The notes under the pieces are model-generated. The model did no database searches, was not told the DNA's origin, and was given only the letters and a program-made list of their open reading frames with translations. From Chromera velia (lineage: Eukaryota): 57,364 nucleotides of DNA. The position numbers and the translations under genes were made by a program. Below are positions 45,055-50,993 of the stretch, piece by piece; the stretch's first letter is position 1; every line of letters begins with the position of its first letter. The stretch lies in assembly GCA_018398765.1 (NCBI GenBank), contig JAHBMJ010000058.1:1-57364 (forward strand), read 5' to 3'.

Positions 45055-45247
45055 CGTATGCCGGGGCCCGCCGGGTTCTTTTTGCCCCCCCAAAGCGGCG
45101 CTTCGCCGCCAAAAACTCGACTGAACCAACCAAGTGGCCTCCAGAGCTGAAAGTTGGGGGATTTCTTACCTATCCCACTTCCATCAATTCTATGGAACAG
45201 AATCTCCAGACTTCAACTATAGCTAGTGCACTAGCAGTTTCCTGTTT
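45055..45247 (+). repeat. Left TIR (~193 bp)
   Basis: Reverse-complement match to 50789-50993; contains a GCGGCG-CTT-CGCCGC hairpin. Confidence 0.92.
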
Positions 45248-45295
45248 GCCAGTTTGTTTTTTAAAAAAAATTCGTGTCCGCTCCCTTCCGTCTCC

Positions 45296-46818
45296 ATGGC
45301 TGCTGAAAGTGTGGAGGCAGCCATCGCGGCAGTGAGGCAGTGCAGAAGCATATTTCCGGATGAGGGACCCATCACGGCCCTAATTTTAGCGTTGGAAGGA
45401 AAGTCGGCCCCCCCAGAAGAGAAGAAAGACGGAGTCCTTAAATTGTTTGACTCGCTCCAATCGAAGATGACCAACTCTTTCTCTGTTTTGTTCGAAAATC
45501 TGCTCTCGTCGACAATGCGGAGGCCTGAGTACGGGGCCAGGGAGGCCCCAAAAGAAATCCCAGGGCACTGGGTTGTGAGAGGCTAGGCCTTTTTTGACTT
45601 ATGCAAAGATGAATTCAATGAATTTCACGATTCATTGAATTGGTTGTCCTACAGATTGTACGTGTCGAACGGCCTCAAGTGCTTCGCGTTGAAGTGCCGA
45701 GTCCTCTCGCTTGCTACTTACCTGACGGACATTCTGACGGGGTTCCTCGGACCTCACTACGTGTGGGGGAGGGTCGTTCTGGGACTGGGGGAAGTAGATG
45801 CGTCAGCCGAGTAGGACGACATTCCGAAAGGTGATTCGATACATCTTTCTCCCCCAATGAAGCAGTGCTGGTCACACTGCGGAGGGGTGTTTGGACCGGG
45901 GAAACGGAAGAATGGGTACATGGATGCATGAGTGCATGAACAGATGGATGGACCCTGCCTGCCTACCTGTACTTGCCTGCCTGCCTCTCTGCCCAGCTGC
46001 CCGCCTGCCTGCCTGCCTGCCTTGCGTGCCTTGCCTGCCTGCCTGTCTGCCTTGCCTTGCCAGGCTTGCCTGCCTGCCTGCCTGCCTGCCTGCCTTGCCT
46101 GTCTGCCTTGCCTGCCTACCTTGCCTGCCTACCTTGTCTGCCTGCCTTGTCTGCCTGCCTGTCTGCCGGGCTGTTCGCCTGCCTGCCTGCCTGGTGATGA
46201 ATGGAGGGATGAATGACTTGATGGTGTATGTGCGCCTCTGTGAGTGCAGAGGTGATTTGTGGAGTGGATCCTGTGTTCGACGTGACGGACGAGAGGATGC
46301 GTGCCTTGCTGACGACGAACTACAACCCCGAGGAGGAGGTGACCTTGGAGGAAGAAGGAGTGGAGGGAGGAGGGGGGAAGAAGAGAAAGCTGAAGAAAAG
46401 GCAGCCCCGAAATGATGCGAAGAGGTGGAAGGCAGTGGAACGCCTCCTCAAGATGGAGGCCGTCCAATTCAGGACAGCCATAGAGCGCCCCTACGTTGTC
46501 CGTCTGAGGGGAAAGGCGATCCAGGGTGTGCTACCTGGGTTGCAGGTCGATGCCGTCTTCAACCGATGGTTCGGAGTGGAGGGGGGGGTAGCAAGACGGC
46601 TCCTTCGTCCTTCTATTTATATGTCGTTCAGCAGCAGCAGGGTGGGGTCGGCGTCCCTTCACCTGGTGTATGATGTCCCAGACAACCCTGCAGCAATGGA
46701 GTGGGTGACGTTTGTGGCCTCTTCTTCTTCTTCTGTTGCACCAGCACCTGCAGCAGCGGCTGCAGCAAGAGCAGGTGTCCTTCAGGTGGCTTGGAGTGGT
46801 CCGCCACTCCCTTTTTAG
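45296..46818 (+). pseudogene. Transposon-borne partner gene of unknown function (3 exons, ~365 aa, one in-frame TGA)
   Basis: Exons ~45296-45571, 45655-45915, 46252-46818 with GT-AG introns. TGA at 45832 inside ER*FDTSF. Basic NLS-like KKRKLKKR after an acidic patch. Confidence 0.7.
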
Positions 46819-47255
46819 CCTTCGGCGCCCGCAGAGGATTCGGCCGATGACGGACAGGATAAAGTCTACTTTGATTTTGATGTTTGAGTCATTGAGGTTT
46901 GAGGTTTGATTTTAAACAAAAAACCGTTCATTTAAATTCTATTTTAAATTTTAATTTATGCTTAAAGTATACTTATAATTTAAATTCTTTTTGATCGAAG
47001 TATAAAATTTAAACTGAGAAATTCTAGTTTGAAATATAGTTGACGGTTAATGTATTTCATTTAAATTATAGTTTATATGCTTTATGTATACTTTATTTAT
47101 TGATTTATAAATTCTAGTTAAAAATATAGTTGACGGTTGATATCAATGCTATGCTATGCTACGCAAATATACGTCACCTGAATCTACTTAATTTAAATTA
47201 GAGTTTAAATGACTTAAAATTTAATGCTTAAAATTTATATGCTATTAATTTTTTT

Positions 47256-50200: not shown

Positions 50201-50703
50201 GTGTTGGCCCGATTCCGGCGGCCGTTCTCGTAGCTGCCGTTAGCAGCGTTGGGGTCCTCCTCGGGAATAGGAGGCAAGGGAGCTGCAAAGGAAAGCGCAT
50301 CTGTGGCCTCTTTGTACTTGTCATGAAGGGGCCAAGACGGGGCATCAGATGCAAATCGCTTTACAACCTGCCCCCAATACACCCCCGGCTGCTCACTCAT
50401 CCGTCTCTTCCTTTTATGCTGCTCTTGCTGGTGGGCATCTCGCTCCTGCTGTTGCTGTTCGGTCCGCACTGCAGTGAAAGGCGGTATTTCTCTGTCCCTA
50501 TAGGCCTTGATGGCCTCTAGCCCTGCTATGTGGCAGGGCCTTTCCAACGCAGGAGACGAATCGCACATGGTTGAGACAAGGTTGGTATGGTACTCTCCTA
50601 AGGGTACATATCTGTCCTTCAGACCTTCTGCTTCTGCTCTTGTGGGTCTCTCTCCCACTCCTTTACGCCCCTTCAAAGATTTGAGCGGTGGGAGCGGTGG
50701 CAT
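47256..50703 (-). pseudogene. RAG1/Transib-like DDE transposase, 4 exons, disrupted
   Basis: Introns 49136-49371, 48814-48914, 48398-48567 splice in frame. Ordered motifs: VVSIDGSSG, IEFYGTADQ..CGNC, WPDLLHLAMRAAEF, SLQGRTVVKL, NGTLHRLEH..RGSYG..QAHEAFNR. Stops at 49038, 47957, 47921; frameshifts near 50180 and 47500. Confidence 0.82.
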
Positions 50704-50788
50704 CGCGGCTTGCAACACGGCTCAGTCTGGAACTGAGCTCAAACAACAGTGAACAACACCTCAGAAATAAAAGTCTATACACATTGCT

Positions 50789-50993
50789 AAACAGGAAACT
50801 GCTGGTGCAGAGGCTATAGGTTGAGTCTGCAAATTCTGTTCTATAGAATTGATGAGAGTGGGATGGGTGAGAAATCTCCCAACTTTCAGCTCTGGAGGCC
50901 ACTTGGTTGGTTCAGTTGAGTTTTCGGCGGCGAAGCGCCGCCTACATATGGGCGGGGGGGGGCAAAAAGGAACCCGGCGGGCCCCGGCATACG
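50789..50993 (-). repeat. Right TIR (~205 bp)
   Basis: Mirror of the left TIR, with 12 extra bp between the terminal block and the hairpin. Confidence 0.92.

Follow-up and report, generated by a model that had tools for sequence, protein, structure and literature searches.

Among DNA transposons, the CMCT clade, which comprises EnSpm/CACTA, Mirage, Chapaev, Transib, Plavaka, ESTA as well as Lanisha, is described in the available part of PMC12730594 as having C(2)C and H(3–4)H marks common to all of its lineages alongside a D-D-E triad, mostly CA..TG ends and target duplications of 2–5 bp. Canonical Transib elements, in the available part of PMC1131882, have CACAATG ends, 5-bp duplications, 206–214 amino acids separating the Glu from the second Asp (253 in RAG1) and no RAG2-like gene; both duplication length and end sequence vary within Transib, and duplications of 2–3 bp appear in the available part of bioRxiv 10.64898/2026.08.26.747230. 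For RAG-like (RAGL) transposons, a CAC end with a 5-bp duplication is given as the standard in the part of PMC7204232 at hand, in which the amphioxus RAG2L is also stated to be without a PHD finger. Asymmetric terminal inverted repeats (TIRs) are characteristic of RAGL and of Subgroup I Transib (PMC9435367), and a RAG1L–RAG2L transposon in a protist, AanRAGL of Aureococcus, has already been published (PMC9435367) and is also cited in the available text of PMC10629977. A convergent pair of genes is a property of ProtoRAG, and it is found too in the maize element MuDR, where, in the available part of bioRxiv 10.1101/2020.01.09.900282, mudrA and mudrB converge from starts within 220-bp TIRs.

Here we describe an element from Chromera velia, carried in a 57,364-nt stretch of DNA (the window), that combines features of several of these systems. 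Chromerids are photosynthetic kin of the apicomplexan parasites. We consider the locus to be a dead copy of a multi-copy, probably cut-and-paste, two-gene Chromera velia element, with a transposase of predicted RAG1/Transib (CMCT) DDE fold and an orphan second gene that is likely a nuclear helper (probability about 0.72). By this reading it is of the CMCT/RAG1-fold kind and most probably not a member of ProtoRAG or RAGL, and it adds a chromerid to the hosts of transposons with a predicted RAG1 fold. Our literature search, with Repbase and figures outside its scope, returned no such element for Chromera, and the supplement text (figures apart) of PMC9435367 and PMC12730594 does not contain the word 'Chromera'.

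Structure and termini of the element

Inverted ends flank two convergent, spliced genes (Table 1). The two TIRs match at 85% identity by blastn (233 bits, where shuffling the 17-kb region 20 times gave at most 33.7 bits). A preliminary description of this DNA had proposed TIRs of about 200 bp around tail-to-tail spliced genes, and both are confirmed here. Its reading of a two-gene, TIR-bounded DNA transposon in a non-animal lineage was likewise borne out, the host being Chromera velia; four transposase exons, bipartite TIR spacers, a 70-nt loss and the lack of any option for a 5-bp duplication are additions to that account. Elsewhere within the 57,364-nt window there is no second copy of the element.

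Table 1. Features of the two-gene element and their positions in the window; positions in brackets are those of the first codon of a motif on the minus strand
Feature	Position	Strand	Remarks
Whole element	45055..50993		Outer bases of the TIR match
Left TIR, 193 bp	45055..45247	+	blastn self-match; terminal and inner blocks
Gene 2 exon 1	45296..45830	+	ATG at 45296, 49 bp inward of left TIR
Gene 2 exon 2	46250..46887	+	Stop codon 46885–46887
AT-rich spacer	46888..47255	.	368 bp, 21% GC, between both stop codons
Transposase exon 4	47256..48387	-	DLLH (48283); Cys-rich acidic insertion with CxxC at 48205 and CxHxCxC at 48046; HRLEH (47599); predicted catalytic Glu, of EAFNR (47524)
Transposase exon 3	48568..48813	-	Predicted second catalytic Asp (48792); CxxC, as CGNC (48735)
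Transposase exon 2	48915..49135	-	Placed from P0004 and P0007, two gene models from other copies
Transposase exon 1	49372..50703	-	Predicted first catalytic Asp, of DGSSG (49402)
Right TIR, 205 bp	50789..50993	-	blastn self-match

The TIRs are bipartite and asymmetric, a trait of RAGL and Subgroup I Transib. On the left, a terminal block (45055–45084) is separated by a 10-nt spacer (45085–45094) from an inner block that begins at 45095 with a short GC palindrome, whereas the spacer between the terminal and inner blocks on the right (50962–50942) is 21 nt long. The 11-bp difference, which recurs in majority contigs of run X2 (pieces 2 and 3), equals that of the 12/23 rule. It may have arisen by chance, as a single indel beside a C run.

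The first base of the left TIR is either 45055 or 45057. Loose ends of other copies reach the terminus in three rows, reading ...GCATGCC or compatible with it (two of the three being a mixed two-contig consensus), and carry C at position 45057, where this copy has T. With outer bases at 45057 and 50991, the family end would be CATGCC and the duplication CG, in keeping with the CA..TG rule of the CMCT clade; with outer bases at 45055 and 50993, it would be CGCATGCC (CGCATG) with TT duplicated and would have no CA end. The target duplication is probably about 2 bp, in the simplest case with 5'-CATG ends and CG duplicated. Across ten terminus offsets in this one copy no duplication exceeded 2 bp, so the 5-bp duplication typical of RAGL and canonical Transib is absent here, as is one of 8–9 bp. 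Nor does a CAC-type, RSS-like heptamer stand at the TIR start, which reads CGTATG in this copy and ...GCATGCC in the others.

Transposase gene

Translation of the transposase begins at an ATG 86 bp inward of the right TIR and, with lesions discounted, yields about 1,000 amino acids from four exons. The first two exon joints were placed from the gene models of other copies, not from RNA. At the joint between exons 3 and 4, which every database model skips, a donor after 48568 produces a frame mismatch and a donor 4 nt further produces none; the donor at 48568 resembles the other transposase donors. The intron donors of this gene have GTNGGTCTC in common. Simple repeats (CCTG, CA and GA) fill introns of both genes (45920–46200, 48400–48560 and 49140–49370).

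All of the minus-strand motifs named in the preliminary description were recovered at their places and in the order given there, and with them the D-D-E triad, the pair of Cys and the three His that mark CMCT transposases. Motif order, together with the ESM Atlas result below, points to catalytic roles for the two Asp and the Glu. Because this pattern is common to CMCT lineages, it places the element in the CMCT clade and does not single out RAG1. By motif coordinates, about 91 amino acids separate the first Asp from the second and about 360 separate the second Asp from the Glu. The excess over the Asp–Glu lengths of RAG1 and Transib largely corresponds to the Cys-rich acidic insertion after DLLH, which is old, as a distant relative (P0010) has it too.

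Other copies and decay

A protein search returned four matches, all labelled Chromera velia: P0005, identical over its match (100%), is the gene model of this copy itself, and P0004, P0006 and P0007 are 92–93% identical to this copy. A profile search of 1.84 billion representative proteins also gave four matches, namely P0006, two near-identical fragments (P0008 and P0009; 89–93% to the window) and P0010, a distant fragment (E = 2e-18, 34% identity over 194 amino acids) that represents a distant second family and retains the Cys-rich insertion along with the surroundings of the catalytic Glu. Each of the six close proteins in the databases is a partial model, and no relatives were found in viral, metagenome or prokaryote contigs. 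In place of the expected first His of the zinc site and the expected catalytic Glu, P0010 has Tyr and Lys, respectively, both of which C-to-T/G-to-A decay would give.

In run X2, contig depth is 10.8 on the unique left flank and 87–139 on the main element contigs, which suggests roughly 8–13 copies, depth being only a rough proxy for copy number. Other copies are 89–95% identical to this one, and all those seen descend from one recent progenitor. A 958-nt X2 contig (piece 20; depth 87), which has the majority alleles, runs from gene 2 at 46737 through the spacer into the transposase gene at 47624, and two others (X2 piece 8 and X5 piece 9) bridge the left TIR and gene 2. Bridging contigs merge copies, and hence do not imply a single intact two-gene copy. 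The majority contigs nevertheless hold both genes, and the absence of the second gene from other copies, which the preliminary description had named as evidence against its interpretation, was not seen.

This copy is dead, decayed mostly through C-to-T changes; comparison with other copies revealed stops, deletions and an insertion, in agreement with the earlier view that it is disabled. In the transposase gene, exon 1 has lost about 13 nt near 50179, which shifts the frame, exon 2 has a TGA at 49040 where other copies encode Trp, and exon 4 has a TAG at 47959, a private 12-nt insertion with a TAG near 47913 and a loss of 70 nt at 47509–47512, directly after the catalytic Glu. Gene 2 has in-frame TAG codons at 45584 and 45812 (exon 1) and at 46816 (exon 2), all of them lesions of this copy: majority contigs have a sense codon at 45584–45586, the loose ends of RNA-type contigs (a guessed label) have one at 45812, and contigs of all four runs have a sense base at 46816. 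An alternative genetic code with TAG reassigned, which the five in-frame TAG codons had suggested, was rejected: the neighbouring host open reading frame of 1,463 amino acids has none, and the sites checked encode Trp, Gln or Arg in other copies.

Between 46200 and 48395, C-to-T/G-to-A changes in this copy account for 37 of 45 differing places against X1 and for 36 of 48 against X2. By context, 31 of 42 sites lie in CpA or CpG (3.6-fold over CpC and CpT, P = 2e-4), where 34 of the 42 sites come from 40 listed rows (67 further rows were unlisted) and 8 from 24 rows, and where neighbours were taken from the mutated window, so that some CpA are doubly mutated CpG. The pattern resembles decay by RIP, whose context is described in the available part of PMC12730594, or by methylcytosine, and gives a hint, for Chromera, of repeat-directed mutation or of a methylation process. 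The literature search returned no report of RIP in Chromera.

Fold and affinity of the transposase

In an ESM Atlas search with residues 170–678 of P0004, the top match was a RAG1 cluster (score 0.96; 181 of 256 features; 0.95 was attained once in 100 shuffles, and the calibration includes no measurement on protein parts), and 9 of the 10 best family-assigned matches share a family or clan. By structure, RAG1 aligned over 415 residues (TM 0.62/0.54) and was the sole row of ten above the naming bar, the first row being a CACTA-type Transposase_21 cluster (TM 0.52/0.46); the model compared is of low confidence (pTM 0.42, pLDDT 0.49), and the sequence-feature and structure searches count as one source. 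Sequence comparison arrived at no named family: Pfam searches with 10, 3 and 2 proteins returned no relevant family, PDB sequence searches yielded only chance matches, and up to E values of 1–10 neither kind of search matched RAG1 or Transib. AlphaFold2 models (pLDDT 36), compared by VIA-align and Foldseek, gave generic helical matches without RAG1 among them and are too poor to carry weight for or against it. The predicted link to RAG1 thus draws on ESM Atlas and on motif order. The relationship to RAG1 suggested in the preliminary description holds to the extent that RAG1 is the best look-alike in ESM Atlas, and fails at the level of sequence matches.

The alternative that fares best takes the element for a divergent Transib in the strict sense, close to Subgroup I for instance, that acquired a second gene. 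Its transposase shares the motif order and predicted fold of Transib, including DGSSG, which is a Transib motif; RAG1 exceeds Transposase_21 by TM; Subgroup I has asymmetric TIRs; and target duplications vary within Transib, where those of 2–3 bp keep this assignment in play. The element differs from canonical Transib in its ends and in having a second gene, and the H-x3-H motif, long Asp–Glu stretch, TIRs of about 200 bp and 2-bp duplication fit other CMCT lineages equally well. We regard this assignment as a real but lesser possibility; it overlaps with a CMCT element of RAG1/Transib fold and only narrows the lineage.

The partner gene

Gene 2 has one intron (45831–46249) and encodes a product of 390 amino acids, about the size of the RAG2 core. 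Its splice joint, 45830/46250, is seen in contigs of runs X5 and X10 from two studies (loose ends at 46248/46250), the RNA type of both runs being a guessed label. Contigs of the same two runs lack cover at 46940–47235, whereas DNA contigs pass through; the AT-rich spacer between the stop codons likely holds the 3' ends of both genes, and the gap in cover hints, if weakly, at two transcripts that converge.

The product has acidic stretches and a basic stretch, KKRKLKKR, that suggests nuclear import. It contains five Cys in total, and its last 120 amino acids hold no Cys and one His, so a PHD finger at the C terminus is absent. There are three GG pairs in 390 amino acids. No Pfam family was matched at E up to 10, a PDB sequence search gave no usable match, exon 2 had no ESM Atlas match and a weak search among proteins of 330–2,000 amino acids returned no homologue. 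Judged by its sequence, the product is without sign of kelch repeats, which leans against a RAG2L propeller, and gene 2 is an orphan, probably not RAG2. The kinship to ProtoRAG advanced in the preliminary description was therefore not upheld: PHD finger, kelch signal, CAC ends and 5-bp duplication are all missing.

We give gene 2 an even chance of being a helper in transposition, and consider an anti-silencing factor unlikely, if credible. We are similarly doubtful of gene 2 as a passenger, or a gene captured from the host (a Pack-type cargo), with no role in transposition, as its lack of a known domain might suggest; elements of the CACTA and MULE kinds commonly capture cargo, and since all of the copies seen share one recent progenitor, the co-occurrence of the two genes among them is not independent. 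Against a passenger, gene 2 starts just inside the TIR, is spliced, is present in majority contigs and has no non-element homologue among the proteins covered by that weak search.

Proposed mechanism and comparison with RAG-like systems

In the model that we favour, an element of the CMCT/RAG1-fold kind with an orphan helper, each TIR of about 200 bp would hold an inward promoter, so that each end drives one gene towards the AT-rich spacer, as in MuDR. The transposase of about 1,000 amino acids would bind both ends, which the 10- and 21-nt spacers would make unequal by one helical turn; three acidic residues would hold the metal ions, and CxxC and HxxxH would form a zinc site. Strand transfer staggered by about 2 bp would account for 5'-CATG ends and a CG duplication; transposition itself and the length of the duplication are both deduced from the structure of the locus. 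The 390-amino acid partner may aid end binding, insertion or expression, in the manner of CACTA TnpA or of MURB, and not as a homologue of RAG2.

With the CMCT clade the element shares the D-D-E triad with C(2)C and H(3–4)H (as given for that clade in the available text of PMC12730594) and, under the preferred reading, would share CA..TG ends and a duplication within 2–5 bp. It differs in the Asp–Glu stretch of about 360 amino acids with its Cys-rich insertion, in the orphan convergent partner and the apparent CG duplication, and in that its sequence-detectable relatives are only its own copies and one fragment at 34% identity. The layout matches that of MuDR, with TIRs of about 200 bp around a convergent transposase and helper, although MuDR belongs to another transposase superfamily and a MULE-type duplication is absent here. 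In layout the element resembles MuDR as much as ProtoRAG; convergent genes may result when each TIR holds a promoter, and do not have to be a sign of ProtoRAG. The element is a warning that two genes arranged convergently do not mark RAG ancestry.

The element likely records a separate recruitment of a helper gene, and not an ancestor of the immune machinery. It is also a natural case in which to test whether enzymes of the RAG1 type acquired unequal ends and partner proteins repeatedly. RAG2 binds RAG1 at its zinc-binding domain. A bolder version, in which a new alveolate lineage of transposons with a RAG1 fold came independently upon a RAG-like design, its ends differing by one helical turn (10/21, like 12/23) and its obligate partner, no relative of RAG2, docking on the enlarged Cys-rich insertion of the zinc-binding domain, strikes us as rather improbable.

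With RAGL and ProtoRAG, AanRAGL included, the element shares a core predicted to resemble RAG1, a pair of genes enclosed by TIRs (and convergent, like those of ProtoRAG) and bipartite asymmetric ends (PMC9435367). A true, very divergent RAGL, with a transposase in the RAG1L clade and a gene 2 product that is an unrecognisable RAG2-like propeller, would explain these likenesses, as well as the RAG1 clusters that head the ESM Atlas list, the 11-bp difference between the ends and a partner about the size of the RAG2 core, and a protist RAGL does exist (PMC9435367). We nonetheless hold it to be very improbable given a partner with no PHD finger, only three GG pairs, no Pfam family and no ESM Atlas match for its exon 2, the absence of a CAC heptamer, of a 5-bp duplication and of a sequence match to RAG1, and, as further differences from RAGL, the long TIRs and three transposase introns. 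Equally improbable is an unrelated DDE superfamily (MULE, hAT or P) with the RAG1 likeness an artefact of the model, which would be compatible with the MuDR-like layout, the lack of a sequence match and the low model confidence but not with a CxxC right after the second Asp and an HxxxH before the Glu (the CMCT pattern), with ESM Atlas rows that, among those listed, name no MULE, hAT or P family, or with termini lacking an 8–9 bp duplication, that of MULE-type elements being 9 bp.

Neighbouring DNA in the window

Directly left of the element lies a 597-bp direct duplicate (43111–43707 and 44033–44629; 92% identical), in which transitions make up 54 of the 64 differences in an alignment across the pair, and further left is a 101-bp duplicate at 41580 and 42495. 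To the right, the intact 1,463-amino acid open frame, which matches no Pfam family, occupies 51553–55944 on the minus strand. At 29163–32900 there is a decayed non-LTR retroelement, whose endonuclease (PF03372) lies in a different frame from its reverse transcriptase (PF00078). Pieces of host genes include a cyclic nucleotide phosphodiesterase (PF00233) at 20224–20742 and a TRAPP component (PF04051) at 35571–36020.
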